Below are positions 7,480-53,260 of a stretch of 64,000 nucleotides of DNA, one piece after another. Under the pieces are notes generated by a model. The model did not search any database. It was not told where the DNA came from and was given only the letters and a program-made list of their open reading frames with translations. Both the position numbers and the translations under genes were made by a program. The stretch's first letter is position 1; every line of letters begins with the position of its first letter. The stretch is from Tubulanus polymorphus (Eukaryota; Animalia; Nemertea): contig NC_134026.1 in NCBI RefSeq assembly GCF_964204645.1, forward strand, positions 19,846,467-19,910,466, given 5' to 3'.

Positions 7480-8830
7480 TTTTTGGCTTGTTCTTAAAAA
7501 ACGCCATTTCCACCGTTTTCAGCTGTTACAGTTTTTAAAACTACATCGCCAGAAACGGCATTTTAGCTTAGATAGTTTTACAGGTGCTATTTATAGTGCT
7601 TAGTTCGATGGGAGTCCCTATTATGACATCATCGCTTTTCTGCTGGCATACATTTGTATATTTGCGCCGAAAAATTAATCTCATTGATCCATTCCAGGCT
7701 TCAAGAAAGAATTAAATATAAATGTACGGGTTTCCGATGGCAAATGTATTTGAATTCTGTTCTTTCTTTATACCTGTATTCTATGTAATAAATATATACA
7801 TACATGTATCCCAAATTGTTTCGAAAATGTTTGTTGTATTTTGAAATGAATCTAGATACAGCTGTATTGATTTTGAGTGTTGTAACGTCATCGGCCACCA
7901 ATTCATTCAATCACTACCCATCACAAGTCCAATTAGCTGGGAGGCATCGAAGATGTTAATTACCTTCAATTAACCAACATCATATGCAGTCCAATATATC
8001 CCTCAACCATTCTATGCTTTATTAGGCAAGATAAGACCATGGGCAAAACTTAAAACTAGATTTTTGATACACTAGTTTATACATGATCCATGATTGATTT
8101 GTCTTATGAGAATGATAATTATAATAATTATTTTATTTTTATTTCTAACATATAATATTTACACATCCGTGCACCTCAGCAAATTAATTATTTTATTCCG
8201 AAAAAAAGTACCCTGTAGACACTAGGGAAAACGTCTAAGCGGGTGGGGGAATCCTCATATATAACAAGTGGACTGCCAATAATGGCTTAATAGTTTATGA
8301 TTATAAAACTAGCTACGCCAAAAACGGCGGAATACGCCAGAAATGGCAAATGTTTTTATGTGTACCCATGGCAACATTTCATTGAAAACTTTATAATAGT
8401 TTTTAAAACTAGTTCCCAAATTTATTTTTAACAAAAATCATGATTAATAAACTTGTTTCATGCTGTAGTAGTTTTGAGAGTTTTCCCGGAGTTTTTGGGC
8501 TGCATATGACGTAATCATTTAGAAAAACGTGAATTTGACCACTTTACCTAGCTCAAAAATTTCCATCCTAGCGTCATATGAAAGCTTATCGTCTGCTCGA
8601 GATTATGACGTAATCAGCAACATGCGCTAATTTGACCGGAAGTGCGCAAAAAACTTTAAAGCAAAACTCGAAACTTAGTGAGCTGAAACTGGCTGATTAA
8701 GCCATAAACGACTGTAAAAGTTTCAAAACTGAGTGATCCATAAACGGCTGATTCTGCCGTTATTGGCGGAAAACGCCGAAATTGGCAGAATAAGCCGTTT
8801 TTGGAAAGTGTTCTAGTCAGTAACCTGTCT
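7480..8830 (-). mobile_element. 5'-truncated copy of a roughly 1.5 kb non-autonomous TIR DNA element, in inverted orientation to the complete copy at 10447-11924
   Basis: 7480-8830 is the reverse complement of about 10447-11796. It retains one terminal repeat (..ggaaagtgttctagtcag at 8830) but lacks the other. No ORF. Confidence 0.75.
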
Positions 8831-10446
8831 GTGGTTTAGTTTCACGATCGGATATTTTCACAAACCACAGTCAGGAATGGGAAGGTCATTTTTGTATGAA
8901 ATCTTCGTCAGCCAATTTGACTGACGAGTAATTTGCCTGGCATTTCATTGTCTCTTAAGATATCCGTCTAATTTTTGCTGTAATCGACGCACAACAGATT
9001 CGTAGTTTGTCTGATACCTATAACACCTCACCTGACGATCTTAATCCATGTGCAAATCGGCCGTAAAGTGAGAGTAAATTTCCGTCCAGTCAACAGCTGC
9101 CATTTTGAAAATTACTGGAGGTGCTGGCACCTGTGGACTGAGGCCAGGACAACAGCACAAACTCACGAAGCGAAACGACGAAATTGAAAAAATTAAGAAA
9201 TCAACACTTATTCCCATTTTTCTTTTACCAAAATTTATTACTTCATTATTTATCTTGGAAAACACGAAGATTTGAAATGTAAGTTGGAAAACCATCAAAA
9301 ATAAAAATTGTCGTTTCGTCTTGGAAGTTTTATAAAAATCCTTGTAGGTCCCCTTGTCTTATCATGCCACATGTGCAATACAGAGAAATGGCGGCTAATG
9401 GCGAAATTTGCTGAGAAATTAATTAATTTCTCAAAATAATGTTGATTAATCACTCGAAACATACATAAAATTGGATTATTTCGAAAGGTACCTGTGTTAG
9501 TTTGTGAATTAAGCCATTAATTATGGACTGAAGTGAATAGAAAGTATATTTTTGAAGTGTTACTTTTTTCAACCGAGTTTTGGTCCTTGTCATCCCTAAC
9601 GTTGGTATAAGCCCATCCGATTATAAAAAGCTTACCACCAACGATTAGGTAACTAACTAGAAAGTGTTCCTGACTGCTTACCAAAATAAAAATGCCAGGC
9701 CTTTTTAAGTTTTATTAGTTAGAAATTTTGACAGTAGACCTACCTCTCAATCCTGGATTGCCGCCATATCGAGGTCTTGTAACTGAGGCATTTTCCTTAT
9801 CTTGGTACGCATCGATAAGAGAAGCCATAGTTTTTTGTTGTGCCAGGAAAAAGTGTAAAAAAGTAGTACGGTGATTTTAAAAATTCGAACCGAGCTCCAC
9901 ACGAATTTGGTTTGGTAAAATAGAAAATGCGGATTCAGAATAGTTGGTGCTTTCGAGTCAGGGATCAGGGTTCCGAGGCCACAACCGGCATATAGGAAGC
10001 ACTTGCATTACGCAATCACGGAGGTACTTTTTCATTCTTAAAAAGTGTTTTCTTAAACAAACTTTCTTAAAAGGCTTGAAAAATACTGAAATAACATCAA
10101 TTCATACAAGCTCTGTGGTTGTGGCAGATCACCCTACTATAGAAAATGACGATTGATTATATAAACTGTAAAATAGAGAATTACACCAAAAATGGAGTTC
10201 TTCGTACCGCCGGCCTAGTCTTTGAAACCAAAAATGGCGGCTTATTCAATCGGGTTTAGCAATCATAGCGATCAAATCGAAGTTCAGACAGCATACTCTG
10301 CATCAATGCGGGACCCTACCCTACCCAGGCACACCTCTCCACTAAATCCTGATTTCTCGACCATTTTCTATCGAAAATTTTCAGCTGTCGCATCACCATA
10401 TTTAGGTTTACCCTTTTTCCTAGTTTTACTACCTTACTGAAATTGT

Positions 10447-11924
10447 CAGTCAGGAACACTTTCCAAAAACGGCTTATTCTGCCAATTTCGGCGTTTTCTG
10501 CCAATAACGGCAGAATCAGCCGTTTATGGATCACTCAGTTTTGAAACTTTTACAGTCGTTTATATGGCTTAATCAGCCAGTTTCAGCTCACTAAGTTTCG
10601 AGTTTTGCTTTAAAGTTTTTTGCGCACTTCCGGTCAAATTAGCGCATGTTGCCGATTACGTCATAATCTCGAGCAGACGATAAGCTTTCATATGACGCAA
10701 GGATGGAGATTTTTGAGCTAGGTAAAGTGGTCAAATTCACGTTTTTCTAAATGATTACGTCATATGCAGCCCAAAAACTCCGGGAAAACTCTCAAAACTA
10801 CTACAGTATGAAACAAGTTTATTAATCATGATTTTTGTTAAAAATGAATTTGGGAACTAGTTTTAAAAACTATTATAAAGTTTTCAATTAAACGTTGCCA
10901 TGGGTACACATAAAAACATTCGCCATTTCTGGCGTATTCCGCCGTTTTTGGCGTAGCTAGTTTTATAATCATAAACTATTAAGCCATTATTGGCAGTCCA
11001 CTTGTTGTATAAGAGGATTCCCCCACCCGCTTAGACGTTTTCCCTAGTGTCTACACGGTACTTTTTTTCGGAATAAAATAATTAATTTGCTGAGGTGAAT
11101 GGATGTGTAAATATTATATAATAAAGATAAAATAATTATTATAATTATCATTCTCATAAGACAAATCAATCATGGATCATGTATAAACTAGTGTATCAAA
11201 AATCTAGTTTTAAGTTTTGCCCATGGTCTTATCTTGCCTAATAAAGCATAGAATGGTTGAGGGATATATTGGACTGCATGTTAAGATGTTGGTTAATTGA
11301 AGGTAATTAACATCTTCGATGCCTCCCAGCTAATTGGACTTGTGATGGGTAGTGATTGAATGAATTGGTGGCCGATGACGTTACAACACTCAAAATCAAT
11401 ACAGCTGTATCTAGATTCATTTCAAGATAAAACAAACATTTTCGAAACAATTTGGGATACATGTATGTATATATTTATTACATAGAATACAGGTATACAG
11501 AAAGAACAGAATTCAAATACATTTGCCATCGGAAACCCGTACATTTATATTTGATTCTTTCTTGAAGCCTGGAATGGATCAATGAGATTAATTTTTCGGC
11601 GCAAATATACAAATGTATGCCAGCAGAAAAGCGATGATGTCATAATAGGGACTCCCATCGAACTAAGCACTATAAATAGCACCTGTAAAACTATCTAAGC
11701 TAAAACGCGTTTCTGGCGATGTAGTTTTAAAAACTGTAACAGCTGAAAACCGCGGAAATGGCGTTTTTTAAGAACAAGCCAAAAATGGCAGAAAACGCCG
11801 ATTTCGGCTAAATTGGCAGAAGCAGTTTAAAACTGAGTAATCCATAAATGGCTGATTCCGCCGTTATTGGCGGAAAACGCCGAAATTGGCAGAATAAGCC
11901 GTTTTTGGAAAGTGTTCCTGACTG
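10447..11924 (+). mobile_element. Complete non-autonomous TIR DNA transposon, 1478 bp with about 95-bp terminal inverted repeats and a 5-bp target site duplication ATTGT
   Basis: Left end cagtcaggaacactttccaaaaacggcttattctgccaatttcggcg...; right end ...cgccgaaattggcagaataagccgtttttggaaagtgttcctgactg. Flanks are attgt (10442-46) and attgt (11925-29). No coding capacity. Confidence 0.8.
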
Positions 11925-11959
11925 ATTGTTATTTGTTATCAATTGCATGTCTTTATCAG

Positions 11960-15457: not shown

Positions 15458-15663
15458 GTAAGTCTTGTACATGACATAGAACCACAGTTGACTCGGCGCA
15501 AGTCATGTTTTCGTGACACCTCATATGAAATACATTACATTTAATAACACGGCTACAGTATCTTACATGCCTGACGTATGTTTGTGGTCGCATGACTCGT
15601 CAAACATCGGACTGGTCTGGAAAGCAGAGATTAAACATTTTTGTACTGTCACCTGTTTTACAG

Positions 15664-15791
15664 ATGGTGGGAACATCGATTACGATCTTCTTGGTATGCT
15701 GATGATGGCTAAGGATGAAGAAACTGGACAAGGAATGACTTCTGAAGAACTCAGGGATGAAGTATTGACCTTCCTTTTGGCAGGCCATGAG
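15664..15791 (+). CDS. CYP4 exon 8: (D)[42 protein letters not shown]
   Basis: Acceptor ctgttttacag; donor GAG|gtaggc. Contains the CYP4 signature EVxTFxFxGHE (continued as TT in exon 9). Confidence 0.85.
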
Positions 15792-16448
15792 GTAGGCACA
15801 TGAATGTCGCTCGTCGCTATATCCCTATACTATTGTTAGATTTCGGTATTTGAATATTTTTTAGTACATTAATTCCAAACTTACGTTGCCTTTATTAAGC
15901 TATTACTGATTCCTGATGACTATTAGTTACAGTTGAAATCAATAAATTATTAGCTTAAAAGAAACTGTTTGGACTTCATTTTTCTCATTTTATTAGTGTG
16001 GGATTCTCAATTTATTGTCAAAAAATGGTTGTAGTGTTTATCAGTGGTTTTGGTAATACATCATAGCATTTTGCTCAAATGCTTGCTGCAATTTGTAGTT
16101 GTAATTGTAATTATCTCTAATGAAAATGAATCAAATCAAATAATCTCTAATGAAAATGAATCAAATCAAATAATTTTGAAAATCGTTCCTTGAGATATGG
16201 CCAATTAACAAAAGGCAGAGTTTTGATTTCATGGAGCAAAGTCACAGTGATGTATATCGTTGTATGTATGTATATCGTTAGTCTTAAGTTCATCAGAAAA
16301 ATTTCCCAACTAAAGATCAATTAAGTAAGAAGATTTGCTCAGTTACTGATTTCTTCAGATCTTCAATCAGTTCTAAACTGTTTAACTGATATTTGTTGAA
16401 ATAAACAACACTGCATCTTTGTTCAAATGCCTATGACTCTTTCAACAG

Positions 16449-19620: not shown

Positions 19621-19743
19621 ACGGATGCTACATTCCAAGAGTGAAGCATTCTTATTAGCCCCTCTCCTCTCGCCCCTTGATAGGAATCGCTACTTTTTCT
19701 GTATGAGCACCGATACCACATCTTTGTTAATTTTTTCATTCAG

Positions 19744-20011
19744 GAATGAACAATTTTGGGATGACCCAGATACGTTCGATCCCGACCGATTCTACCGAAA
19801 GGAAGTCGATTCGTCGAAGTTTTTGCCATTCGTAGCCGGTCCTCGTATGTGCATCGGTTATAAATTCGCGTTGCTCGAAATGAAAATGATCGTCGCTCGC
19901 GCGTTGAGGTCGTTTCGATTTACGAAGATCCCCGGCAGCAATTACACGAAAAAGATACGCGTCACCATGAGGCCGGATCCTCCGCTCGAGTTGTATATCA
20001 AAGCTGTTTGA
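19744..20011 (+). CDS. CYP4 terminal exon with heme-binding loop: (R)NEQFWDDPDTFDPDRFYRKEVDSSKFLPFVAGPRMCIGYKFALLEMKMIVARALRSFRF...ELYIKAV*
   Basis: Acceptor ttttttcattcag. Contains the P450 Cys-ligand motif FxxGxRxCxG (FVAGPRMCIG) and the PDRF motif. Stop TGA at 20009-20011. Confidence 0.9.
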
Positions 20012-20544
20012 GTGAATCATAGCTAGAGCGTCGTCGCTACGGCAGGGATTCGGACCTGATGGCATCGCTAGACTCGGCTGTGGCATGAAATCCTGCCACA
20101 CAACGGGGGTGTGCTGAAAGAAAATTTGTGGCACCAATCGGATTGCTTGTATAATCGCTGGGGCGAATTTCACGCGGAAGAACTATAACTAGAAAAACCC
20201 AGGCTGAAACAAAGAGATAATTTCTGATTGGTAAATAATGACATCTAAGCAGCGCATGTAGCTCCGCACCCGGTCTAGGGTGGCAGGTTTTCGCAACATG
20301 GCAGCCTCACTTCCGTCAGGTTTTAATCCATTTGGTGCAGGATGACCTAGAGAGTTTTTAGGACGATCGAAAATCATAGATGCGTTAACGAGATAAACCT
20401 CATTTTTTGAATGACTATATAGGGTCTTACTCGTGATGTCATAGTTCGTTTGCCAACTAGTGCACAGGGGCTGGTCGCAATCGGTAGTGAATGAACAAAA
20501 CCAGTATCAGCCACCTGAAAACTGATTTTATTTGAGATCTTATA

Positions 20545-20748
20545 CAGTGGAACCTCGTTATAACGAACTCTGATATAACGATTCATCGGATATAACAAAT
20601 AAAGAATTTCATCCCAAGTAAAAGAATTTGATTAATTTCATACTGGATATAACGAACTATCGGTTATACGCAGAAGAGTTATAGAATCCATGGTAATAAC
20701 GAACATATTTTCTGGTGCCGTGAAGTTCGTTGTAGCGAGGTCCCACTG
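20545..20748. mobile_element. MITE of about 204 bp with TIRs cagtggaacctcgtta.../...cgaggtcccactg, flanked by a TA target site duplication (Tc1/mariner or Stowaway-like)
   Basis: TA at 20543-44 and at 20749-50. Related copy at 46128-46286. Solo end fragments occur at about 3995-4040 and 13480-13510. Confidence 0.75.
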
Positions 20749-20929
20749 TAGTAGCTTCATCGGGTACCTTATTTACGCGATGAAGCTACTATGCACTGAT
20801 AGCGGAAGCACGTGATATCAAACAAAATCAGTTACTTTTTGATTAATTTGATACAAATTGTGAAGAAACATGATAACTTTAATAAAATCTGTCGAAAATC
20901 GTGAAAATGTGAACAATTAAGAAAAGTAT

Positions 20930-21250
20930 CTGGTCTAAATGTGTTGATCCTCTTTTTATGACATATAAATGGAGCTCAGAATTTGTGCAAACTGTGTTAA
21001 AGTTTTAAAGAAATTTCCATTTTCGATCAGTCCATATTGTGACCAGTCACCGCTCATGTTATTGTGACCTAAAAAGTCGATTGTTAGGTTAAAGAAAAGC
21101 GTGAAAATTCTAGTGTTAATCAACTTAACTTCCAAGACTTGAATGAACTTGATCTATGCACAAGCATTATATAATCTCTTTACATTTCCTTTACTTTCTT
21201 ATTACCTATATTCGGGATAACAATGTTAATTATTTTGCGTATATACATAA
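20930..21250. repeat. Interspersed repeat family; second copy at 33340-33600
   Basis: Shared blocks: ggagctcagaattt..., gaaaattc(t/a)agtgttaatcaa(c/t)ttaac..., aatgaacttgatctat...caagcattatataatct(c/a)tttacattt. Confidence 0.6.
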
Positions 21251-21444
21251 ATTATGAAATTATTGTCTGCCATATAGAAAGTTTATTATATTGAAAACTT
21301 ATATACTCAAGATATTTTGGAGATTTTAATTTGTAATTATGAACTTACTCTATGAACGTTATGAACATTTTATTTATGCCAATAAAGAAATTCTGATTAC
21401 TAATATGTGTTTGAAAAGTCTGAACTCTTGGCACCATTTGAACT

Positions 21445-22375
21445 AATCATAACCTGTCGTTCCAGATTATAAAGAATTTTGATGTTTTAGATTTCGAACC
21501 ACTTGTATCTGATGTGCATGCGGCCATTAGAAACAACACCTAATGTCTATTTATTAATTGATGAGACCTGTTTTTCTTGGATATTTTGCTTACTTTTTGG
21601 GGTACATACCTCATTGATGTCTTTACAGAATGCCAAAAATCGCGGACAACAACTGAATATCCGATATATTTCCAGTTCCGTACCAATTAGATGGATTGGC
21701 AAAAAGACTCCTTAAGTCCAGTTGAATGAGAGAGAAAATCCTCCATTTTGTGAAATTTCTTGAATTTTTACATTGTCACCATGCCTACGAAATGAAGTTA
21801 TTTTTCTTGTGGGGTCTCAACAACTAAATCAGGGTGGCGTAGGCATGGTAACAATGTTCAAATCCAAGAAATTTGACAAAATGGAGGATTTTCTCTCTCA
21901 TTCAACTGGACTTAAGGAGTCTTTTTGCCAATCCATCTAATTGGTACAGAACTGGAAATATATCGGATATTCAGTTGTTGTCCGCGATTTTTGGCATTCT
22001 GTTAAGACATAAATGAGGTATGTACCCCAAAAAGTAAGCAAAATATCCAAGAAAAACAGGTCTCATCAATTAATAAATAGACATTAGTAGACAGTTTTTT
22101 AATAAAGAAGTTTCCAGTTTCTAGGTGCCATTTTGTGGCGGTCCCTCGAGGTCCCTATTGTTGCGATAATTTGCGCTCAGTTTTAAAACATAAGTTTAGA
22201 TTGAATATCATATAGTTCTGCAGTCCCTTGCTCGACGAAATCAATTTATACACCATTTTAAAGGAAATGAAATGCAGATATTTGCTGGCGATTCTTGGAA
22301 TTTTTGAACGCAACAATTGAGAACAGTGACGATGTGAAACCAAGGACCGCATATCTTAACCGTGCGTAAAAGAAA
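21445..22375. repeat. Copy 1 of a local tandem duplication (unit about 465 bp, aatcataacctgtcgttccagattataaag...) that carries the foldback insertion at 21543-22084
   Basis: Segments 21445-21540 and 22087-22375 are repeated at 22381-22470 and 22556-22845. Confidence 0.8.
21543..22084. mobile_element. 542-bp foldback/palindromic MITE inserted at a TA dinucleotide. The uninterrupted (empty) target is preserved in the adjacent duplicate at 22551-22560.
   Basis: Filled site: cacc-TA-[atgtctatttattaattgatgag ... ctcatcaattaataaatagacat]-TA-gtagacag. Empty site in copy 2: cacc-TA-gtagacag. The arms (21543-21760 and 21840-22084) are reverse complements; the spacer also carries the small palindrome ttgtcaccatgcctacg/cgtaggcatggtaacaa. 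Confidence 0.85.
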
Positions 22376-22380
22376 TCGCA

Positions 22381-22845
22381 ATCATAACCTGTCGTTCCAG
22401 ATTATAAAGAATTTTGATGTTTTAGATTTCGAACCACTTGTATCTGATGTGCATGCGGCCATTATTTGCGAAATTAAAATCATCAAAAAAATCCACACTG
22501 AAGAAGCCCAACCCGGCAACAACTATAAGATGGAAACAACACCTAGTAGACAGTTTTTTAATAAAGAAGTTTCCAGTTTCTAGGCGCCATTTTGTGGCGG
22601 TCCCTCGAGGTCCCTATTGTTGCGATAATTTGCGCTCAATTTTAAAACATAAGTTTAGATTGAATATCATATAGTTCTGCAGTCCCTTGCTCGACGAAAT
22701 CAATTTATACACCATTTTAAAGGAAATGAAATGCAGATATTTGCTGGCGATTCTTGGAATTTTTGAACGCAACAATTGAGAACAGTGACGATGTGAAACC
22801 AAGGACCGCATATCCTAACCGTGCGTAAAAGAAATCGCAATATTT
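22381..22845. repeat. Copy 2 of the local tandem duplication (carries the empty site). It contains a 78-bp segment that copy 1 lacks.
   Basis: Identical 65-aa minus-strand ORFs (22155..22352 and 22614..22811) are a consequence of the duplication and are not genes. Confidence 0.8.
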
Positions 22846-24049
22846 ATTAATTTTAAAATATCTAAGTATCTCTTCAAGCTATATTTCCTGTTTTCACAGA
22901 GGTTAAAGAGGGTTATTTGCAGTTTAAGCCTGCGTTGAATTTTTTTAAATATCTTTCCTGACGACTGATCTGTACCCGCTTGAGTTTGAGATTACGCGCG
23001 AAAGGGGTCTGCCCACTGCGCACCGCCATTTCACTGAACATTGAGATTTGTGAAAAGAAATCGCAAAAATAAGATTTTATACTGGTTTGTAATTATCAAT
23101 ATTGCTTCTGATGGTTATATATTACCTTTATTTTCGTATGGTTGAAAATGGACTTTGAGTGTTTTGATGAATTCGAGTTTTGTAGCGTTGGGAAATTAAA
23201 GGATTTCTTGTAAGAGTGGGGACTTTCTGTGTTGGTTGCAAATGTGGCCTAGTTGATAACCTAATTTGCGTTTCAACCGAATGTACCACTCATGGTTGGA
23301 CACTAGAAAAAAAATCTAAGTTTTTATATATTTTTGAATATGCGGCGCAGCTGAAAGTTGCCAAACTGGACGTTGACCCCCTAAAACAGAATATCAAATG
23401 GGGACAGATATGAACCCCTTTAAATATTATATTGGAATTTTATATCAGTAAGGTTTTCTGGTCGATGTTTTCCAGCAAGAAGGTTGAGATTCATTAAATT
23501 CATCGTATGATCGTAGAATGAGGGATTACTAGAGAGAGATATGTGTTAAATATGTCCTAAGCGTTTAAATCTACTGGCACATTTCACCATCGACTCTAAA
23601 ACGTTTGATTTCACCGAACACAAAATCGGCGCTAGGCTGGACGGGCTGTATACGACAATTCCTCAACTGGACCGTTCACACTTCAATAGCGGGACAAACC
23701 GGATCCCGAAACCAGATTAACTAATTGCCCCCGCCAAAATACGGTACAAAGAAGATATGGATTATCATCTAGGACTCGACGGACAATTTACCGCCGGTCA
23801 AAACAGGTCCATAAAAGGACACGTTCTGTACATAGTAAGTTGGAAACGAATAGAGATTTTCGTAAGTATAAGTGACTAATTAAGATAAATAAGAGGGCTG
23901 GTGTATCGTGTTTTAATGCATCTCTGCGGCAAATGCATAACGCGCGTCCTCGACAATTCTGGAAAATCTTCAGGAAAACAGGTGACAGAGACTGCATAGC
24001 GTCCCTTGACGATCTATATTCTATGAGAATTTAAATCGAAACCCGCGAA

Positions 24050-26040
24050 ACGCAACCCCAGAACATTTATATGAACTGGATGACTTTTTCGATTTAGGGG
24101 ATCACAGCCCATTGAATGCCCATTTTAGTGTAGAAGAAATAAAAAAGGCCATTAATTTGTTAAGTAACAACAAAGCCCCTGGCGTCGACGAGATATCCAA
24201 TGAGATTTTAAAGCATTCTCAGGATGAAATACTACCAATTTTGTTGGGACATTTTAATAATGTATTGGATACGGGAATGATTCCAGAAAATTGGGGGATC
24301 GGAATAATAATACCTATATATAAGGGCAAAGGTAACCGCGAAGACCCTGAAAACTACAGAGGAATAACCCTTTTGAGTTGCGTCGGAAAACTTTTTACTA
24401 ATATACTCAACCAGCGTCTGAAGCAATACCTAGAAGTGAACAACCTCCTCTTAAGGAATCAGGCCGGTTTCCGAAAGGATCACGGAATACTAGATCATAT
24501 ATTTACCTTGTAAAGCATTGTAGACTAATTGTTTTTTTGCAAATGGTAAGAAATTATATTGTATTTTTATAGATTTTCAAACATGTTTTGACACAATAAA
24601 CCGAAAGGCCTTATGGCAAAAGCTCATCCAATTAGGAATCACCGGTAAAATTCTCAAAGTGATCCATAATCTATGTGAAAATGCAAAATCCTGCATTAGA
24701 GTGAATGGAGAAATTTCTGATTACTTAGAGAGTTTTACAGGATTAAGACAGGGGGAAAACCTCTCGCCTGTGGTTTTTTCAATATTTGTAAACGACTCAG
24801 AGGAATATTTATCAAATGAAGGGTGCTCAGGGATAAACTTTTTAACAGATGATGATAATTTATGGATTAAATTATTATCGCTTCTTTATGCTGATGATAC
24901 CGTCTTATTATCGGAGAGCCTAGAAAACATTCAGCTTTTGGCTAGCAAAATGGCTGAATACTGCGAAAAGTGGCAACTGAAAAACAATTACGCCAAAACG
25001 AAGGTTATAATTTTTGAAAAAAGGAAGAGCCGTCGTCGGCCTGACATAACTATAAACAGTCACCATATTGAAGCGGTGGATCACTTTAGATATCTAGGAA
25101 TTATTTTCGACTACAATAGAAAATTCACTCTGTGTAAGAAGTCTGTATTTGAGCATGCCAACAGGGCTATATTCTTTAAACTGAACAAAGTTCAAGAACA
25201 TTCGCTTGCAATTGACATAGCTTTAAAACTTTATGACAGCATGGTTCTATCGATACTTATACATTCGGATGTGAGATTTGGGGGATGGAGAACATATCAA
25301 TTTTGGAGAAAATACAATTGAAATTTTTTAATACATTCTTGAACTGAAAAGGTCTACCCCAAATATGTTTGTATATGGCGAACTAGGCCGATATCCGTTG
25401 GAATTAACGGTCAAATATCGAATGATAAAATTGTGGGCCAAGCTTTTAAACAGCAACAAACTGTCTTCTGACATGTATCATATGCCACTAAAATCGCATG
25501 AAAATGGCAATTTGAACCCCTGGATATCCTTTGTCCGCAAACCATTAGAAACAAATGGTCTTGGGAATTTGTGGCACGACCAGACACCCCTAATCCTGAT
25601 TACGCAGCACACAGCCTTTCTTTGCGACTGAGGGACCAATACGTTCAAAACTGGGATAACCAATGTAAGATTTCTAATATTGCCGACTCGTATAGAATTT
25701 TTAATGGGGCTCTGAAAACTATTTAGCTGAATTACCTGATCATCTAAGGATATCATTTTGCAGATTCCTATGTTCCAACCATCCCCTCCCAATAGAAAAG
25801 GGAGATGTAATCGTATACCCCGAGCAGACAGGCTGTGTACTAAGTGCGATATGGGAGTTGTATGTGATGAATTTCACTTTATATTTATTTGTCCTTTTTT
25901 CAATGACCAGCGCAGGAAGTATGTCAAGCAATATTATATAAACAATCCTACATCGCATAAATTTAAAGTTATTTAGAGTTATTTTGTGCAACTGGCGTGA
26001 AATTAAAAAACCTCATTTTATATATACAGAAATGTTTTAA
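24050..26040 (+). mobile_element. 5'-truncated, frameshifted non-LTR (LINE) retrotransposon: reverse transcriptase domain plus a C-terminal Cys-rich region
   Basis: ORFs 24112..24513 and 24659..25321 encode RT motifs (KAPGVDEISNEILK, NYRGITLLSCVGKLF, FRK..., YADDTVLL), with a frameshift between them. 25758..25976 encodes CTKCDMGVVCDEFHFIFICPFF (zinc-knuckle-like ORF2 tail). Confidence 0.8.
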
Positions 26041-26753
26041 GATAAATTGTTACCTAAGTGCAGTGTTATAAATGCCAGATAATGCACTCGTTGCATATAT
26101 ATGTCCACCAATTGTATATATTGTCAATTTTCATTGTCTGTAATTTGTATAATAATGTATCTTGTAACTGGCTTTTGTAAATTTTGTGAGCAATAAATCT
26201 ATCCATCCATGATTTCGTTTTAGCTCTTTAATATACTCCAGGGTTATAAAATAATGAATAATAACATTCCCGCTATGGAACTATTCTCGTGACCAACGCC
26301 ACCACATTTGGGGAGGGCCGACGACCAACCTCGGGACCTGATTCGCCCACCAAGCCCCCAAGAATTAATGTTCTTAGTTCTGGTGAGGAAACAAGCCCGG
26401 AGCTGTCTCGGTTTCCAAACATGTAGACGTTGACACTTGACTAATCCCTTAGGATTTAGGATTTTTACAATTGTCTTGAAACCTAAATCCAAAAATTTCT
26501 TATCAATCCGAGACATAAACTGAACCAGTAACAAGCAAATAAACAGTAGATAATCATTAAGCCAATACTTGCCGTTTGTGAATTTCTAGTGAAAGAAAGC
26601 AAATAGACCTCGAAAAACTAGTAGTCAAAACATACCTGTTTATGAATTCCCAGTGAATTGATCAAAAATTGCCTATCATAACAGTAATGCTCTACAACCG
26701 CGAGATATACAAGCTCAAATAGATCAGTGCCGTACATACACCAGGAATCGAAG

Positions 26754-26781
26754 ATGAAACTATTTCAAGATCATTTTACAG
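26754..26781 (+). CDS. TCTP paralog A, exon 1: MKLFQDHFT(G)
   Basis: ATG at 26754; donor G|gtaaca. Canonical TCTP N-terminus (MIIYKDIISGDE family). The 28-nt exon is identical in length to exon 1 of copy B. Confidence 0.7.
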
Positions 26782-27179
26782 GTAACATTTATGACCATCG
26801 ATGAAACACTCCATGTTGTAACGATGATACATGTATGAAGTATTAAAAGAATGAACAAAATATTCTAGAGCAGGGGCGGATCTAGGGGGGGGGGTGGATG
26901 AGTAACCCACGCTCCTGAAATTTTAAGAACTTCCTTAAAAACTTCCGTATTATTTTTTCCATTTTTCATTTTTTTCTAATTGTGGCCTACAGAGTAAAAT
27001 GTTCTTGGTGGGTATTTAGGTTTCCGCCCGCCGAAGGATACGCCAACATAAACCCTGACCGTTAACCCTTCATCTCCCCAAATGAAGACCCTGCGTATTT
27101 GCCTCTGTAGAGCACACCGACGTAACTGGTTACTGTTGATGTTCATGGATAGAATTCAACTTCTCAATTCAACTTTTAG

Positions 27180-27358
27180 GAAAAGACGTATTTAACGATG
27201 CCTTTAAATACACGCTCGTCGACGACCTGTACTATATAGTAGAAGATGATGGACAGGAAGAATGTGATGAAAAACCGGAAGTAAGCGTTATTGCCGCCTG
27301 CAAACTAGAAGAGGCATCCACTATTGTTACGAAAAATGACTTCAAACAACATTTAAAG
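27180..27358 (+). CDS. TCTP paralog A, exon 2: (G)KDVFNDAFKYTLVDDLYYIVEDDGQEECDEKPEVSVIAACKLEEASTIVTKNDFKQHLK. It lacks the flexible-loop segment present in copy B.
   Basis: Acceptor aacttttag; donor AAG|gtatgt. Aligns with TCTP [24 protein letters not shown] ... [29 protein letters not shown]. Confidence 0.75.
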
Positions 27359-28122
27359 GTATGTATTTTCATATTCGCATGGATCGTTCTTTTCCCGGGC
27401 ACAAAACGGATGATTCTTATTAAAGCGCAGCACTGCAGTTAAATACCCTGAAAACTATGAGGCCAGATATTTTTGGATTTTAAATTTCACATGAAAGAGG
27501 GGGTTTATACGCAAAGTTACTGAAATATTTGAATTTTTTCGAAAATCATATAAAAAACTAACGAATTTCAAATCTGAATACCCTGACATTTTTGCCAGAT
27601 TAGACTAGAGATTCGCACGGTTTAAATGTTGCTAAAACCGCCAAAATCTAAGTGTGTGAAGTTAGTTTGAAAACCGTCAAAGTTCGTTTGTATTAACCGT
27701 GAAATTAGTTAGTTTGCGAAGTTAGTTTGACGATGGACGAATTGACGATCAACAAAACCGTCAAACTCAAAGGAAATAATCCGCCGCAGTATATCGAGTC
27801 CGGTATCACGTTTCTCGCGTTTGTCATAGCGAGTCGTGGGCTCGGTCCTCGATGCGATATGACCCGAAGATCCGCTATTGAAGATACGTATATCATCTAC
27901 CGCGTTCTGGCAGATCAAAATGTATAATCTATTGCCCCGGTCGTGGGGTGATACGACCTAGTAAACTTTTTCGCTCGAAATGTGCTCTAATAAAGTTATG
28001 CATTTTACCGTGTGATAGATTCGTCAAAATTAGCCATTCGTCCCTTTTGGTCAATCGTCGCTTCGTCAATCTGTTTTGACGAATTGACGATTGAAGAATA
28101 TTGACAAAACCGTCAAAATTGT

Positions 28123-28400
28123 ATGGAAGCCCTGAAACGACATTACGAATTACGAGTTACGTTTTACAAATTACATTTTACGTTTTACGAATTACGAGTT
28201 ACGTTTTACAAATTACGAGTTAGGTTAACGATTTACCATATAAGCTCCCTGCATTGCGTATGTCGCGCGAGGTCAAGGTCTTATACAATTACGTTTTACG
28301 AATTACGTTTTACGACTTACGTTCTACGAATTACGTTTTACGAATTATGTTTTACGAATTTCGTTTTACGAATTACGTTTAACGACTTACGTTTTCTATT
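28123..28400. repeat. Satellite-like tandem array of 8/16-bp units (ttacgaat tacgtttt) forming the left arm of a foldback-like structure
   Basis: Repeated ttacgaattacgttttacgaattacgagttacg. Its reverse complement recurs at 29040-29165. ORF 28123..28455 is an artefact of the repeat. Confidence 0.8.
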
Positions 28401-29039
28401 GACTTATTGGCTATTGCTTCAAAAGTTTTTCGGAAAAACACGGGCTTTGCAATGAAGTCGAATCATGACGAAGAATGAATCTGACTGAATTTATTTTGCA
28501 TTTTGAAATATATACATGTATATCCGTGAAATTGAGGGAGTTTATCGTACGCATTTTTATTACAAGTAATAATGAGACCAAGGAAGTCAAAAAGTGACAT
28601 GATAATTTCAAAATGATCAAAAGTATAGAGATTCAGCCTGCATACGCCCGGATTCATTAGATAATAAATTACAAACACTAACACTGTCCTGTTTGGCAAG
28701 GAAGGGCACGATGATTAAGACGATACAAAACTGGAAATTATTCGGGCTTCATGGAGATAAAAAGAAATTGGACTCCATATCGGTGCAGATACAATTCTTC
28801 AATTGTAACAAATGATCATAACAAGTCTTAGCTTTTAATTATGAAAATATATATTTTTATTTGAAAGAAAAGCGTTTGTCATCCATCATCGTTATTAGTT
28901 GAAGTATTCGGCAAAAAATTACAATCGATTTCACCACAGTGCTGCCTTCTGCTTGCTACCCAAAGTTTAATATTCACGACACGGAGAGTGCACCACAACC
29001 TTGACCTCTTGTGAGAAATTGAACCGAAATGTAGTGGTA

Positions 29040-29165
29040 AATCGTTGCCCAAAATAACTCGTAAGACGTAATTCGTAAAACGTAATTCGTAAAACGTAAT
29101 TCGTAAAACGTAAAACGTATTTCGTAAAACGTAATTCGTAAAACGTAAAACGTAATTCGTTATGT
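29040..29165. repeat. Right arm (reverse-complement satellite cgtaaaacgtaattcg) of the foldback-like element in the TCTP-A intron
   Basis: cgtaagacgtaattcgtaaaacgtaattcgtaaaacg is the reverse complement of the 28123-28400 array. Confidence 0.8.
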
Positions 29166-29519
29166 CGTTTCGTTCAGGGCTTCCATAAAATTGTCTCAAG
29201 AAGTCAAACTCAATATCCACATCGCACTAATAATAACCGCGGTACAATTATCGAGTCATGAATCAAGTTTCTTACCTCGGTCAGAGCCAGCCAAAATCCA
29301 TCTATGGTCCAATGAAATTTGACAAAACACGCATCACAAATAGTTTTTAAAAAAGAGAATAAATAATAATACAGGACAAAATACTGTATAGCCTAACAAA
29401 ATGGCGGCTAGCAATTGTAAAATGATTTATCATCTGGTCCCGTTTCGGCCACTCACAAATGTTTGGCTTGAATTTTCTAATCGGCATTACGAATATATTG
29501 TTAAATGTTCTTTTTGTAG

Positions 29520-29649
29520 TCGTGGTCGAAGAAATTGCTTGCTAGAATCAAGGAAACCGATGCGGAAAGAGCTGAATTTTTAAAGAAACATTTACCAGAT
29601 TTTACTGAGAAACTTGTTGATGATTATGACGCATTAAGCTTCTATGCCA
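29520..29649 (+). CDS. TCTP paralog A, exon 3: SWSKKLLARIKETDAERAEFLKKHLPDFTEKLVDDYDALSFYA
   Basis: Acceptor ttctttttgtag; donor A|gtcagt. The 130-nt exon has the same length and phase as exon 4 of copy B. Aligns with TCTP [41 protein letters not shown]. Confidence 0.75.
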
Positions 29650-29729
29650 GTCAGTAAAAAACACCGTCGACATTTCTGTCGCAATTTCATTTAACCAATA
29701 CTCTATGTTTTGTCATTTCAATCTTACAG

Positions 29730-29851
29730 CTGAGGACGATGAATACGATTTGGAAGGTGGTATCTATTTGCTCAGATATCGCGACCCAGTCAATGAAAAA
29801 GAGCCATATCTGACTGTTTTGAAAGATGCCGGTTCTTTCGTTCAGATATAA
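29730..29851 (+). CDS. TCTP paralog A, terminal exon: (T)EDDEYDLEGGIYLLRYRDPVNEKEPYLTVLKDAGSFVQI*
   Basis: Acceptor atcttacag; stop TAA at 29849-51. The 122-nt exon matches copy B. Aligns with the TCTP C-terminus [28 protein letters not shown]. Confidence 0.75.
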
Positions 29852-30094: not shown

Positions 30095-30255
30095 CACGTC
30101 TTTACTGTATCAGCATCATAAGACAACTAACTTTATTTCCTATACTGTAAACTACACTAAAAAGAGTACATGTGGTCAAGTAATTACATAGATCCATCAT
30201 CTTGACAGCTGCGGTTCAAAGACTACTTCAAAGAATACTTCGGCTGTTGCCGACA
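30095..30255. repeat. Direct repeat of about 160 bp; second copy at 30752-30905, with about 500 bp between them
   Basis: cgtctttactgtatcagcatcataagacaactaa(c/a)tttatttcctata...tcggctgttgccgaca is repeated nearly perfectly. Could be LTR-like or a segmental tandem duplication. Confidence 0.8.
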
Positions 30256-30751
30256 CTGCCGGGGGGCCAAGGTGTGGTTTAGCATGTCAAGTCTGGTAGT
30301 AAAGTAAACAAAGTACGTAAGTAAATCTAGCAAATACGAGGAAAATTAAAAAATTAAAAGTAATTAAAACGTTATACATGAATTCGAAGAAGGCAAATTT
30401 AAGTACAGTGAGTATAATGATAAGCGATCGTCTAATTTGAATTTCTAACAGGCATTGCGTTGTGTTTGTAACATATTTGATATAATTATGAATTCTAAAA
30501 TCATATTAGTTTAATGTAATCATCATTTAAACATTAATCTACATTTCCTACATTCATTGATAAACATAGTTCATAGAAATGTTATTTATGAAAGCATATT
30601 GAAGAAATTGATAAGCATTTAAATACATGTAGCGGTATATATAATCATACGTAATTGAGAATTTCAGCAAATTAAGGTTATAGGCGTAAACAGTAAACAT
30701 TTTAACGAGTCATTAATTACAGTCGGGGTGGCGCGTGATTTTCGTTCGTGT

Positions 30752-30905
30752 TTACTGTATCAGCATCATAAGACAACTAAATTTATTTCCTATAATGTAA
30801 ACTACACTAAAAAGAGTACATGTGGTCAAGTAATTACATAGATCCATCATCTTGACAGCTGCGGTTCAAAGACTACTTCAAAGAATACTTCGGCTGTTGC
30901 CGACA
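30752..30905. repeat. Second copy of the 160-bp direct repeat
   Basis: See 30095-30255. Confidence 0.8.
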
Positions 30906-31338
30906 ACTACTGTATACTCTTTACCAATAAGAAGAGGGCTCCAGGAAAAAATCTCAACCTCAGAATGCATCTTGTATACATTTTCTGTTTTACTCCGATG
31001 AGGGGCTTCGTTCTTCGGGCGCTCGCGCAAGCACACACCTAACTTTGGAACGTTTATCGTGTTAAAATGCCAACCCTTTCAGTGGCATAGTCACTAGGAG
31101 TGACGATGAAATCCGATAGATCCTGGCAGTCACCTGCCAGGTGACACGTTACTTACTAACCTACTTACTTTCACTAGATGACAACCAGTCGAATCTGGCT
31201 GCTCAAACTTAATGTCTTACAGTCGTTTAAATGCTCTAGTACTGATAAAAAGTGCTGGCTATGTTTTTTATTAGCAAACTAGGTCATGTAAACAAATACG
31301 TGACCTAAATTTGACATAAGGAATGAAAAGATAGATAT

Positions 31339-31500
31339 GTGCATGTCGGATACGAATTCGTGTTGCTCGGATTGAAAATGATCGTCGCTCACGTGGTGGA
31401 AGTCGATTTACGAAGATCTCCCGATAGGAATTACATGAAAAAGTTACGAGTCGCACCAGATCCTCCGCTCGAATTGTACATTTTAGCTGCTTTTAGAATG
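31339..31500 (+). pseudogene. Pseudogenised fragment of the CYP4 terminal exon (heme-loop to C-terminus), about 11 kb downstream of the intact gene
   Basis: MHVGYEFVLLGLKMIVAHVVEVDLRRSPDRNYMKKLRVAPDPPLELYILAA versus intact MCIGYKFALLEMKMIVARALRSFRFTKIPGSNYTKKIRVTMRPDPPLELYIKAV. Indel, heme Cys lost (MHVGY), and no acceptor context. Confidence 0.7.
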
Positions 31501-32142
31501 AATTTTGAGAGTTTTGATTTTTAGATGATTATTAATCAATAGATGCGTGTTAACGAGATGAGCCCCATTTTCAAATGGGTATAGGTCTTGCGCGTGACGT
31601 CATAGTTTGTTTGCTGGCCATTTCGAGGGTCTGTCATGTAAATCACATGTATATACATGTATATATGTTTATTCGACCCATGTGGCGTAGTCACTTTGAA
31701 AAAGCACAGGGCTGCAAGACCTTTGTAATATCTATTTCGACGAACGTTTTTGTGAACGTTTTCCAAGGAGAATACAAGGAGAATTTTTTCATCTGGAAAA
31801 AATTGGTTATGATTTGTTTCTGGCAAAACATTTTGTGCATGAATTTAAAGTCAAGGCATGGGAGTTATTTTTTTTATAATCATTTCTCAACTGTTCACAC
31901 TCTTGCACTGGGATTGACCCGTTCCTGTTCAAACCATGTGTTCAATTCACTTCAATTCAATTTCAATATTTTTCATAAGAAAGCATGTTATAAGAAAGAA
32001 ACAGGACCCAGTTCGACAGTCGTAAGTTAGAGTTAACTCTGAGTTTAAGTTAGTTCATTTTCAATGTTTTAACCCAGAGTCAAATCTTAACTCGGAACTG
32101 TGGACATGGGCCCAGAACAAAAATAAAATTGAGAAGGCTTTC

Positions 32143-32470
32143 TTATGAGGGCCTAGCCACGGCCAAAAGGCTGCTATAGCAAGCACCGCTCGTTCGGTGT
32201 AGGCTCCATGTTGTCCTATTACAGCAACGGACAGCCACGTTCTCTATCACTTTGGGAAATGTTTTTGGCGATATGTTCTGCATCTCCCTGCGGATATTGT
32301 TCTTCAGTTGGTCAAGTGTTCGAGGCTTCGGGCTCCCATAGATTCTCTCTTTCAGATGACCCCACTGGAAGAAGTCTGTGGGCGCAATGTCGTGTGGATA
32401 ACCGGGCCACTCCACATCCTCATAGAGATTACTCGATCTGGAAAATGTTCACGGAGAAAATGTATTGATT
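32143..32470 (-). mobile_element. Mariner-like (Tc1/mariner superfamily) transposase C-terminal relic
   Basis: Minus ORF ...WPGYPHDIAPTDFFQWGHLKERIYGSPKPRTLDQLKNNIRREMQNISPKTFPKVIENVAVRCCNRTTW matches the mariner PYSPDLAPSDYHLF...L....I...W consensus. Upstream parts are degraded. Confidence 0.65.
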
Positions 32471-32635
32471 CTCCGGTTATGCGAGGTGGAGCCATATCCT
32501 GATACGAATAATGTTATTTCTCCTTCGGGCCTGAGTACGCTGACAGAAATAGATTCTCGTATCACATTCGGTTGTTTACTTGGTTGATGGTAACTATGTG
32601 TCCTTGGTCATCCTCACAGAAATGCGGGCTAGCCA

Positions 32636-32966
32636 CATTAGCCGCGATCACACGAGCATTTTTGGCCCGTACCAAATTTAGCTCGGAAAACTGTTCACAC
32701 GGGTGCCAAATGGGCCCGAGCCTGTTTGGCCCGACAAAAATTGTTGGACAAGGCCAAGCAAAATTTTAGCACCAGACAAATGATTGCGTTTGAATAGCAA
32801 CTGGCACCGGAAATGATCCACTTCGCTTTGTTTGAGCATTTTTTAGTATCGAGTGAATGGTTTACGTGTGAACGCGCTCTCTAATTAGGCACGGGCCAAA
32901 GTTGGCCCGAGCCTGATCCGTGCCAATTTGGCCCGGGCCAGATCGTCACCGTGTGATCGCGGCTAT
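32636..32966. repeat. Palindromic element of about 330 bp with TIRs tagccgcgatcacacg / cgtgtgatcgcggcta, adjacent to the mariner relic
   Basis: 32638-32655 agccgcgatcacacgag is the reverse complement of 32950-32966 ccgtgtgatcgcggct. Internal ggcccg-rich subrepeats (tttggcccg, ttggcccgagcctg). Confidence 0.6.
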
Positions 32967-33339
32967 TGTCGCAGTTAAAAAATCATTATAGAAACAAAAT
33001 CTCGCATGCAGGGTTCCACGGTTGCGGTCCTTATTTGTCCTTCTTTTGGAAGAAGTTTGGACAAACTTCATCTTTGTGCTTTATGTGCTTTATGCACATA
33101 TTGTTTTGTCAGTCAAAGCATTTTTGGGACACCCTGTATATGGATTAATTGATTTTATTCGAAAACATTAGAGCGATAGCCTGTGATCTAACATAAGATC
33201 CGTTTAGTTGAACTGTTTTATCAATTTGATAAAATGTGAAGAGATCTGATGCATTTTTTTTTATAAAACCTGTGAAATATCGTAAAAATGCGAAAAATTC
33301 AAGAAAACTGTAAAAAAATGTTTTGATAGCTTCTTATGC

Positions 33340-33600
33340 CAAACACGACGGAGCTCAGAATTTATTTCAGCTCAGAAATTCTATCTTAATCTTATTAGAT
33401 CGGGATGAGTAAACGCTCATATTATTGTATCTTTCAAAAAAAGTAAATTATGGTGAAAATTCAAGTGTTAATCAATTTAACCTCTGAGACAGTAATGAAC
33501 TTGATCTATATTTCATTTCATTTCATTATACTGTACCGTACAAGCATTATATAATCTATTTACATTTATATTCAGGATAACAAACTTTATATTGAGCCCG
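33340..33600. repeat. Second copy of the interspersed repeat seen at 20930-21250
   Basis: gaaaattcaagtgttaatcaatttaacc...aatgaacttgatctat...caagcattatataatctatttacattt...ttcaggataacaa. Confidence 0.6.
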
Positions 33601-34649
33601 CTTATGGATAATTTATACGCCCAGTCGAACCGGAACTTTATAATACATGTACAATTTTGCGAATATTGATTATGAAATTACCTGTTGTGATACGCGTGCA
33701 TGTATGTATTTATAAAACTTGTATGTTGTATTTTGGAGATATGATTTTAGAAAAAATAAAATTGTTCTTAAAATGATGGAGATATTTTTGAATTTAGAAA
33801 AGTCTGAAATCTTAACACCATTCGAACGTAATTATGGAAGGAACGCGGAGATGGTGGAGGCTGTGCCATTATTCAGCAGAAATTGTCAAATTACGATTCA
33901 ATAGAAATGCTACCAGAGACTTTTGAAGCATCGACAAAATCGGACATTATCAAGCCAAAATGGGGCAAGGAATATATATGTTCACTACTATAGATCGAAG
34001 AAAATACGATTGCGGTGATCCAGGGAAGTGTGATGAGATCTCATCACACTTCCCTGGCTGATCTACCATTAGTTACCGAGTGACACTGGGCGATGATATA
34101 TGATATGTTGAATTATATCATATATCATATTATTCAGCCCCTCTCAACCCCTGAAATGAACGACATAACAATATTGCGACCTAGACAACGATGATTACCA
34201 CCCGTTTACTTTAGCACTGAAAATATGAATGATAAAAGGATTATAACACAGCCGGTTTTGAGCCGATTAATTTCTGCAATGCTTTTATACGACCCAGAGC
34301 AGCGTCATTGGGGGGACGCAATCAACCATAATGGATTCCCATTGAAATTATGTGACTACGTACAAACCCGCTCTCCCGTCCGACTTCTTATAATCTTAGG
34401 GATTATATTCTTACGAGACTATAGCAGAAATGTATCTACAGTGTCAAAGTGGTATTTGCTAATATAGAAAATTGTTTCTCTTCGCTCCCCTCATCCAAAA
34501 TAGGTGACGCCGCCTCAACGGCCGTGCACTTTTTAATAAGACCAAGGCTATAAAACCTGTATGAACAGATTACATACGTTTGTATAAAGCCTGTGTGATT
34601 TGGACGAGACACAACTATACAATTCGAAAGGACACCAACGGACTTGAAA

Positions 34650-34677
34650 ATGAAAGTATTTCAAGATCATTTTACAG
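34650..34677 (+). CDS. TPT1: TCTP (TPT1) paralog B, exon 1: MKVFQDHFT(G)
   Basis: ATG at 34650; donor G|gtaatt. Near-identical to exon 1 of copy A, including the downstream intron start. Confidence 0.75.
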
Positions 34678-35511
34678 GTAATTTTCATAACCATTGATGA
34701 AATTCTCTGTTCGTGTTGTGACGATCTGAGAAAATCTAAGAAAGATGAAAGAGTATTTCTGAAGATAGCTATTAAGATATAGGCCTGGTCGAAACGCTTA
34801 TCACGACTTGTACAAGTCTGGCATATTTTTTTACGTGCCCTATATTCATTTTGCCAACAAAGATAATTGGTGCATTTTAGTGGGAGTGCGCCTAATATTG
34901 CTTTTTTGGACATCATGTGACAAGTCCTTCAAAATTGGCATTTGGGTCAGCCCCTGAAATCATAAACTCAAGGAGACTTTACTTCTTTCTTAATGTGGAA
35001 TATATTATATGTAAAGATAATTTGCATATTTGGATTGAATTAAAACAACAAGATAATCCTGTTACTTAAAGATGCCGGCCTTGAAGATTTGAGCATCGAT
35101 TTCGAAAGATTCACTATTTGGTAATCTTTTTTCATCCGTTTTGGTATGTACTTGATTTGAGGCCAAATGTTAATCCCAAATATGCGAGTTGTGAAATTGC
35201 TCCTTTTGGTATATTTTCAATAATTTTCTGCGTGAGTTCTCCTATAGGAACCGACATGTGTACCTAACAAAAAGTTCCACTGTAAATAGAAGAACTGTAA
35301 GTTAAGCTCCACGCGGGTCTCTCTGGCTTTTATGACTTATTCATTAATTCGATAATATGGAAGAACATACAAGCTACTAATTTCGGTATAACAGCCAATC
35401 AAATTGGTCCCTGGAGGTAAAGCCAGAGTACGCGGTCTGAGCCTGGTCAATCAGCAGATTAAGTCAGTGAAATATAAGGAATTGTTCACGGTTAGCAGTC
35501 ACCTTTTTCAG

Positions 35512-35582
35512 GAGAAGACGTATTTAGCGATGCATATAAATACACGCTCGTTGATGACCTGTACTATACAGTAGATGGAAAG
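35512..35582 (+). CDS. TPT1: TCTP paralog B, exon 2: (G)EDVFSDAYKYTLVDDLYYTVDGK
   Basis: Acceptor cacctttttcag; donor AAG|gtgagt. Aligns with TCTP [24 protein letters not shown]. Confidence 0.8.
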
Positions 35583-35736
35583 GTGAGTTTAGAAATCTAA
35601 AAAACAAAATTCATCCAAGTTCAAAATCTAAACACTTTAATGGAGAACCGGCTGAACTACTGCCACTCGCGACCGGTGGTATGCCGGTTCCCCATTGACA
35701 CGACGAAAATTTACAAGGATTGTTCGTGTTTTTCAG

Positions 35737-35910
35737 TGGGTATCGTCGAAAACTGCAGTAAGCGAATCACTGATTGGTGGTAATAGGTCTGCAGAAAATG
35801 ATGAACAAGAGAAGGCTGATGTAGAATGGGAAGTAGACTTTATTGGTAGTAGCACTTTAAGAGAGATAACCACTGTTGCTTCCGTTACAGACTTCAAACA
35901 ACAATGGAGC
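35737..35910 (+). CDS. TPT1: TCTP paralog B, exon 3: WVSSKTAVSESLIGGNRSAENDEQEKADVEWEVDFIGSSTLREITTVASVTDFKQQWS
   Basis: Acceptor gtgtttttcag; donor AGC|gtatgt. Contains the TCTP flexible-loop motif SLIGGNxSAE (human DDSLIGGNASAEGPEGEG). Confidence 0.75.
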
Positions 35911-36310
35911 GTATGTATTTCAATGTTTGCAACTTGGCTGATTCGAGCTATCGGTGGGCGTCGTTGCGGGCCGTCTTCGGGCGGTGCTTTCGGGGTTACG
36001 AGCCCCTGTCGAGCGGCGCTGAAAAGACTTCGAACCCAGAAGCCGAAACGCGAAATTATTCGCAGACGACTTAGATCTCGGTCGTGTCGCACTCGGCAGA
36101 GCAGCTACCACACTGCGAACCGTTATGTCCTTTGACCGATGGATTTGTCCCGGGGGCGGCCCGTCCAGGGAGAATGTCTGGGGTAATAGGTCGTTCATTT
36201 CCGAGGCAGAAAGATTGCCATTATCTGGTCCCGAATCAGCCACTCAAATGTTTGGTCTCTATTTTCTAATCGGCAGCGAATATAGTGCTAAATTTCCTTG
36301 AATATTGTAG

Positions 36311-36440: not shown

Positions 36441-36519
36441 GTTAGTAAAAACGCTGTCTATATTACAGTCGCATTTTCATTCAACCAATGCTCTATGTTT
36501 CGTCATTTTAATCTTGCAG

Positions 36520-53169: not shown

Positions 53170-53260
<91 letters not shown>

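Follow-up and report, generated by a model that had tools for sequence, protein, structure and literature searches.

The locus lies in a 64-kb window of the Tubulanus polymorphus genome, the whole stretch of DNA analysed here, with a G+C content of 34-45%. A cytochrome P450 segment recognised by the Pfam p450 model occupies positions 19625-20011 on the plus strand, and a weaker match to the same model, below its curated cut-off, spans 15513-15803 on that strand. Farther along, a single-exon GPCR open reading frame (49458-50510) matches the NCBI protein 'melatonin receptor type 1A-like [Tubulanus polymorphus]' at 100% identity, which marks the DNA as that of a palaeonemertean ribbon worm. Two pairs of older paralogous segments, 19846-21450 with 31336-33835 and 26738-29841 with 34632-36631, share 70-87% identity and look like the traces expected of cytochrome P450 genes copied in tandem. 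A young tandem duplication begins about 1.4 kb past a P450 stop codon, exactly at the point where the older paralogy fades out (21450/33835). Both the duplicated locus and the element that it carries are intergenic.

Other transposon-like sequences are present in the window. A 5'-truncated, frameshifted non-LTR retrotransposon with an RVT_1 match occupies ~23900-26210 on the plus strand, and its nearest public proteins share 40-56% identity with it among the 120 matches listed. On the minus strand, a decayed, frameshifted open reading frame at ~32143-32620 contains ...YQDMAPP...WPGYPHDIAPTDFFQWGHLKERIY... and looks like the catalytic C-terminal portion of a Tc1/mariner-type transposase. Pfam returned no match for this frame, and its only PDB match, a weak one at E = 0.042, is the catalytic domain of the Sleeping Beauty transposase SB100X. 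A single query joining the mariner-like remnant to the reverse transcriptase of the LINE gave a best identity of 56%, and none of the 120 matches listed was named Tubulanus. The remnant at best hints at past Tc1/mariner elements in the genome, and nothing connects it with the 542-bp element described below. Nested within the remnant is an element of ~325 bp (32640-32964) with 15-nt terminal inverted repeats, AGCCGCGATCACACG / CGTGTGATCGCGGCT, and, as read by eye, ATT on both sides. Its ANT duplication and its terminal repeats starting with AG match the description of Pangu, a member of the PHIS superfamily (PMC4482050).

The window also contains several repeats of other kinds. A large inverted repeat at 7480-11785 has arms of ~1334 nt with 97% identity, 1640 bp apart, and possibly represents either a large element of foldback type or a segmental duplication in inverted orientation; related pieces of 92-100 nt lie at 11824-11925. 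Arrays of 7-nt and 14-nt TTACG-type units (TTACGAATTACGTTTTACG...) at 28117-28414 and 29035-29192 are inverted and ~860 bp apart, giving a structure like terminal inverted repeats built of tandem subrepeats. Reading by eye also reveals a perfect 38-bp palindrome, CCAGGGAAGTGTGATGAGATCTCATCACACTTCCCTGG, at ~34021-34058 and a second, AT-rich palindrome at ~34095-34135. Young local duplications include a 159-nt direct repeat (30097-30255 / 30747-30905; 98% identity, spacing 650) and a 117-nt tandem pair (1841-2077; 96% identity, period 120). Long (TA/TATATG)-type simple repeats at 53120-53349 and 59523-59730, inverted and 6.3 kb apart, account for most of the reported inverted-repeat pairs of the window.

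The duplication near the P450 gene consists of two copies in tandem. Copy 1 (21445-22379) has a period of 935 bp and holds a 542-bp insert together with a second TA, and copy 2 (22380-22838), 459 bp long, has its insertion site unoccupied. The copies were compared with a repeat finder and by aligning copy 2 with copy 1 after removal of the insert. On the left, 21445-21529 and 22380-22464 agree at 85/85 bases, followed by a further 13/13 up to the insert; on the right, 22085-22382 and 22544-22841 agree at 295/298. The flanks differ by three substitutions in 394 compared bases (0.76%). Copy 2 additionally carries a 68-bp segment (22465-22532) that is missing from copy 1, where the breakpoint falls between 21529 and 21530, 11 bp upstream of the insertion-site TA. 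Neither microhomology nor a flanking direct repeat was found at this breakpoint.

The junction between the two copies reads ...GAAATCGC|AATCATAACC... and contains the trinucleotide AAT (22380-22382). Since AAT also stands both after copy 2 (22839-22841) and at the start of copy 1 (21445-21447), the duplication appears to have joined at a 3-bp microhomology. Such a junction is what a genuine small tandem duplication is expected to leave, and on this evidence the duplication looks real. By blastn, the 459-bp unit has no other copy within the 64-kb window. A tRNA or SINE origin of the unit was considered and set aside, given that no tRNA was found in the surrounding 20500-24000 and that the window holds no further copy of the unit. 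A 14-mer, AAAAGAAATCGCAA, closes each duplicated unit (22368-22381 and 22827-22840) and occurs a third time at 23053-23066, 212 bp downstream of copy 2, in surroundings that are otherwise dissimilar.

The insert itself is a non-coding, foldback-like element of 542 bp (21543-22084) with 35% G+C. It begins with the 23-mer ATGTCTATTTATTAATTGATGAG and closes with the reverse complement of that 23-mer, and nearly its whole length is taken up by two inverted arms of 247 nt each, the left at 21543-21789 and the right at 21838-22084, separated by a non-palindromic, asymmetric centre of 48 nt (21790-21837). The arms start at the first base past each TA and end exactly at the TAs. They are 96.8% complementary, with eight mismatches in 247 nt: the inner 38 nt contain five of these and the outer 209 nt the other three. 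Folded as DNA, the element reaches -276.9 kcal/mol, compared with -52 +/- 4.8 for dinucleotide shuffles (z = -47), a predicted hairpin of far greater stability than chance would give. The only Rfam matches are two models of plant long-hairpin miRNAs, which score well below their gathering thresholds on the element (MIR2670, 76.8 against 117; MIR7504, 55.6 against 83), and we read these scores as generic long-hairpin matches. Across six frames, the longest open stretch is 58 codons, and searches with the three forward-frame translations yielded no protein homologue at E <= 10. No tandem array is reported by TRF, and direct repeats within the element amount to no more than short two-copy matches estimated to be at chance level.

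Searches for further copies covered several collections. The terminal 23-mer occurs in the window only at the two ends of the element, where none would be expected by chance, and allowing up to three mismatches yields no second copy in the 64 kb. Likewise, blastn at word size 7, with the whole element and with one arm as queries, finds nothing in the window beyond the element itself and no source sequence for the arms. The concatenated forward-frame translations returned nothing at E <= 10 from 5.8 billion predicted proteins, a set in which the species is apparently represented only by NCBI proteins. The exact 23-mer has no match in JGI metagenome contigs, a collection that seemingly excludes this genome. 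A literature search found no published description of MITEs in Nemertea.

Comparing the two copies defines the insertion site. In copy 1, the filled site reads CACC-TA-[542 bp]-TA-GTAGACAG, with the left TA of the target-site duplication at 21541-21542 and the right TA at 22085-22086. In copy 2, the empty site reads GAAACAACACC-TA-GTAGACAG, with a single TA at 22544-22545 in the context CACC-TA-GTAG and with no base extra or missing. The target read from the empty site is the palindrome C|TA|G. The TA alone is also palindromic, which leaves each boundary of the element uncertain by one base. In this sequence, a 2-bp flank match arises by chance with a probability of ~0.07, so the call of a TA duplication rests on one locus with an expected chance rate of about 7%. 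Direct observation covers the tandem duplication, the boundaries of the insert, the exactness of the TA duplication, the undisturbed empty site and the element's lack of coding capacity.

These observations bear on the initial annotation, which had described a two-copy local duplication containing a perfectly palindromic 542-bp element bounded by TA...TA, with an identical but empty site in the second copy. The two-copy arrangement is borne out by the coordinates and flank matches given above, and the insert measures exactly 542 bp with a TA on each side. The pairing of filled and empty sites also stands, with an exact TA duplication in copy 1 and a single TA and no footprint in copy 2; the flank alignment proposed there as a check confirms both the homology and the exactness of the duplication. 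The description of the element as perfectly palindromic fails, given eight mismatches between the two 247-nt arms and the asymmetric 48-nt centre. The flanks are homologous, as claimed, yet not identical: they differ by the three substitutions in 394 bases, and the 68 bp that copy 1 lacks had gone unmentioned.

The order of events and the age of the insertion can be approached through the divergence of arms and flanks. The arms differ by 3.2% and the duplicated flanks by 0.76%. Had the arms been identical at insertion, and had the insertion followed the duplication, the expectation would be ~1.9 mismatches between them, and eight are observed (8/247 in the arms against 3/394 in the flanks; Fisher p = 0.026; Poisson P = 7e-4). 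The excess is confined to the inner 38 nt, and the outer 209 nt, with three mismatches, fit the rate seen in the flanks. With more divergence in the arms than in the flanks that bound their age, the insert was already an imperfect inverted repeat with an asymmetric core when it arrived. This argues for an insert copied from a pre-existing imperfect element, which favours a transposon and speaks against a freshly made fold-back repair product.

For the same reason, arm divergence cannot serve as a measure of time since insertion, and dating by it was dropped. The flank divergence of 0.76% is only an upper bound on the age of the insertion. The older paralogous segment (31336-33835 / 34632-36631) was tried as an outgroup and abandoned, as its homology ends at 21450/33835, where the young duplication starts; consequently, it offers no ancestral state for either the 459-bp unit or the 68-bp indel. 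With copy 2 lacking a footprint, a duplication followed by insertion into copy 1 needs one event fewer than insertion, duplication and exact loss.

Classification of the element draws on published systems. MITEs are assigned to superfamilies by the size of their target-site duplication and by the similarity of their terminal inverted repeats to those of an autonomous element (PMC3814204). Stowaway-like MITEs, which derive from Tc1/mariner and carry terminal inverted repeats, 'always' duplicate TA, and several of them, including Milord, Cele1, Cele2 and Tc6, have terminal inverted repeats far longer than those of their autonomous Tc1/mariner relatives (PMC3814204). The element is small and non-coding, carries terminal inverted repeats, and has a target-site duplication checked against an empty site, albeit at one locus; the duplicated dinucleotide is TA, as in Stowaway-like, Tc1/mariner-derived MITEs. 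It resembles the long-repeat members of that group, namely Milord of Culex and Cele1, Cele2 and Tc6 of C. elegans, which are likewise small and non-coding with a TA duplication. As in these MITEs, its repeats much exceed the typical autonomous Tc1/mariner ones, making it essentially a hairpin. Unlike them, it resides in a nemertean, and the likeness concerns the TA duplication and the length of the repeats, not the end sequence. The best classification appears to be a long-repeat, foldback-like, non-autonomous, TA-duplicating element of Tc1/mariner type, a placement made from the duplication alone.

The sequence of the termini is less typical. Canonical ends of Tc1, mariner and pogo elements include CAGT... 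and YYAGGT..., which the termini of the element (5'-ATGTC...) do not appear to resemble. Tc1-like elements of the IR/DR type, such as the Sleeping Beauty group, have inverted repeats of ~200-250 bp, each with two transposase-binding direct repeats. Arms of 247 nt with a TA duplication would fit a deletion derivative that kept both inverted repeats. No convincing internal direct repeats of the IR/DR type were found in the element; the sole candidate pair, TTTCTTGGATATTT / TTTCTTGAATTTTT, agrees at 12/14 positions with a spacing of 183, is AT-rich, and is estimated to lie at about chance level. In Drosophila, FB elements have arms of tandem subrepeats and generate 9-bp duplications. The element shares with FB its long inverted arms, which snap back into a hairpin, and its scant internal sequence, but identity with the Drosophila type was rejected, as TRF detects no tandem subrepeats and the duplication is 2 bp as against 9 bp.

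Other cut-and-paste groups were also compared. Among PHIS elements, ISL2EU, PIF/Harbinger, NuwaII and Spy similarly use short AT-rich targets, and NuwaII prefers a C...G context. ISL2EU duplicates AT in A|AT|T (PMC4482050), and the site here is TA in C|TA|G. The TWA of PIF/Harbinger (Tourist-like) and the C|TNA|G of NuwaII (PMC4482050) are excluded, given that only two bases lie between C and G in the empty site; moreover, a 3-bp duplication would require a direct repeat, and the left TAA and right TTA do not form one. Spy inserts in AAA|TTT with no target-site duplication (PMC4482050), which differs from the site CC-TA-GT even when the latter is read as T|A without duplication. Pangu, with its published ANT signature (PMC4482050), does not match a 2-bp TA in C|TA|G. 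The 542-bp element was compared with three further signatures as well. PiggyBac targets TTAA, hAT elements duplicate 8 bp, and Helitrons insert at A|T without terminal inverted repeats; none of these signatures matches C|TA|G with a 2-bp TA duplication.

Taken as a whole, the locus points to the following history. A 459-bp intergenic stretch would have been duplicated in tandem at AAT, by way of the 3-bp microhomology. Later, a 542-bp non-autonomous cut-and-paste DNA transposon would have integrated at C|TA|G in copy 1, where staggered cleavage at TA followed by gap repair would have duplicated the dinucleotide, with copy 2 retaining the unoccupied site. Two 247-nt inverted arms making up nearly the whole element would mark it as a long-repeat, foldback-like MITE. 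Since the element encodes nothing, any movement must rely on a trans-acting transposase able to recognise its ends, and this enzyme would most probably belong to the Tc1/mariner superfamily, known for TA duplications. Integration by a transposase, the superfamily assignment and the sequence of events are inferences, and we hold a tandem duplication followed by Tc1/mariner-type, transposase-mediated insertion at the TA of copy 1 to be the probable account, with good though incomplete confidence. Confidence in the mechanism is held down mainly because no second copy was found. The earlier claim of insertion after duplication survives as the simplest history, given the exact TA duplication and the footprint-free copy 2, and the earlier TA-targeted, Tc1/mariner or Stowaway-type reading agrees with the published Stowaway-like signature of a TA duplication with terminal inverted repeats (PMC3814204). 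The expectation that the pair would be useful for dating holds in part: the flank divergence of 0.76% provides an upper bound, and the arm divergence of 3.2% is unusable. The earlier mention of an active MITE family gains no support from the searches of the window, the predicted proteins and the metagenome contigs, in which no second copy turned up.

Different histories of the two copies have to be weighed against this account. The element might have been present before the duplication, in a unit of ~1 kb, and then have been precisely lost from copy 2, whether through perfectly repaired excision or through a deletion between the TAs stimulated by the palindrome. The sequence forbids nothing in such an order, and long palindromes are unstable, with deletion between flanking direct repeats a known outcome. 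Cut-and-paste excision of TA-duplicating elements, however, normally leaves extra bases behind, and a repeat of only 2 bp hardly favours slippage, whereas copy 2 is entirely free of a footprint; two events, insertion and exact loss, would be needed where one suffices, and we consider this sequence of events very improbable. The copies could also be two haplotypes assembled head to tail, in which case the difference between them would be an allelic insertion polymorphism accompanied by a 68-bp indel and three SNPs. A substitution rate of 0.76% with two indels would be in the range of the haplotype difference of a heterozygous marine invertebrate. The junction nevertheless consists of a clean 3-bp microhomology within unique sequence, and a false duplication of 459 bp in the middle of a chromosome-scale contig is unusual, which makes an assembly artefact highly unlikely.

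The nature of the insert invites two further explanations. It could be palindromic filler captured during double-strand-break repair or made there through fold-back priming or an inverted duplication, in which case TA...TA would be a coincidence. That only one copy is known after searches of the window, the predicted proteins and the metagenome contigs would suit such an origin, the 2-bp match has its ~7% chance, and the 68-bp deletion 11 bp away may be the trace of a repair event. Fresh fold-back synthesis, however, should yield a perfect palindrome; instead, eight arm mismatches go beyond the age of the flanks and the 48-nt centre is asymmetric. In addition, the window holds no source for the arms, and the arms stop exactly at the TAs, leaving repair filler with very little probability. 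Alternatively, the insert could be a transposon outside Tc1/mariner, either one that inserts at T|A without duplication (AATGTC...GACATT, 544 bp) or a member of an undescribed 2-bp TA group. The one-base ambiguity of each boundary permits this, the termini do not look like canonical Tc1/mariner ends, and no partner transposase was identified. Against it stand the signatures of Helitrons (A|T, no terminal inverted repeats) and piggyBac (TTAA), which do not fit, as well as the mismatching signatures of ISL2EU, PIF, NuwaII, Spy and Pangu (PMC4482050) and the fact that a TA duplication is the standard signature of Tc1/mariner (PMC3814204). We regard such an assignment as quite unlikely, if somewhat less remote than the histories above.

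If a Tc1/mariner-type insertion is accepted, its wider meaning is modest. The understanding of transposition is unchanged, as TA-duplicating MITEs with long terminal inverted repeats are well documented in nematodes, mosquitoes and plants, and the insertion is a neat but ordinary instance of a well-known kind of small cut-and-paste transposon. The particular 542-bp element may be uncatalogued. More speculatively, and improbably in our view, it could belong to an uncatalogued lineage of nemertean transposons and have been mobile recently, with ends 5'-ATGTCTATTTATT... unlike canonical Tc1/mariner/pogo, moved by an undescribed clade of TA-targeting transposases; its 247-bp hairpin just downstream of a P450 gene could then also feed small-RNA pathways as hairpin RNA. 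What the locus offers is a paralogous empty site that fixes the element boundaries and the 2-bp TA duplication, and that gives the insertion a maximum age, that of a duplication with 0.76% difference between its copies. Although its direct value is small, the element can seed the annotation of DNA transposons in Tubulanus polymorphus.
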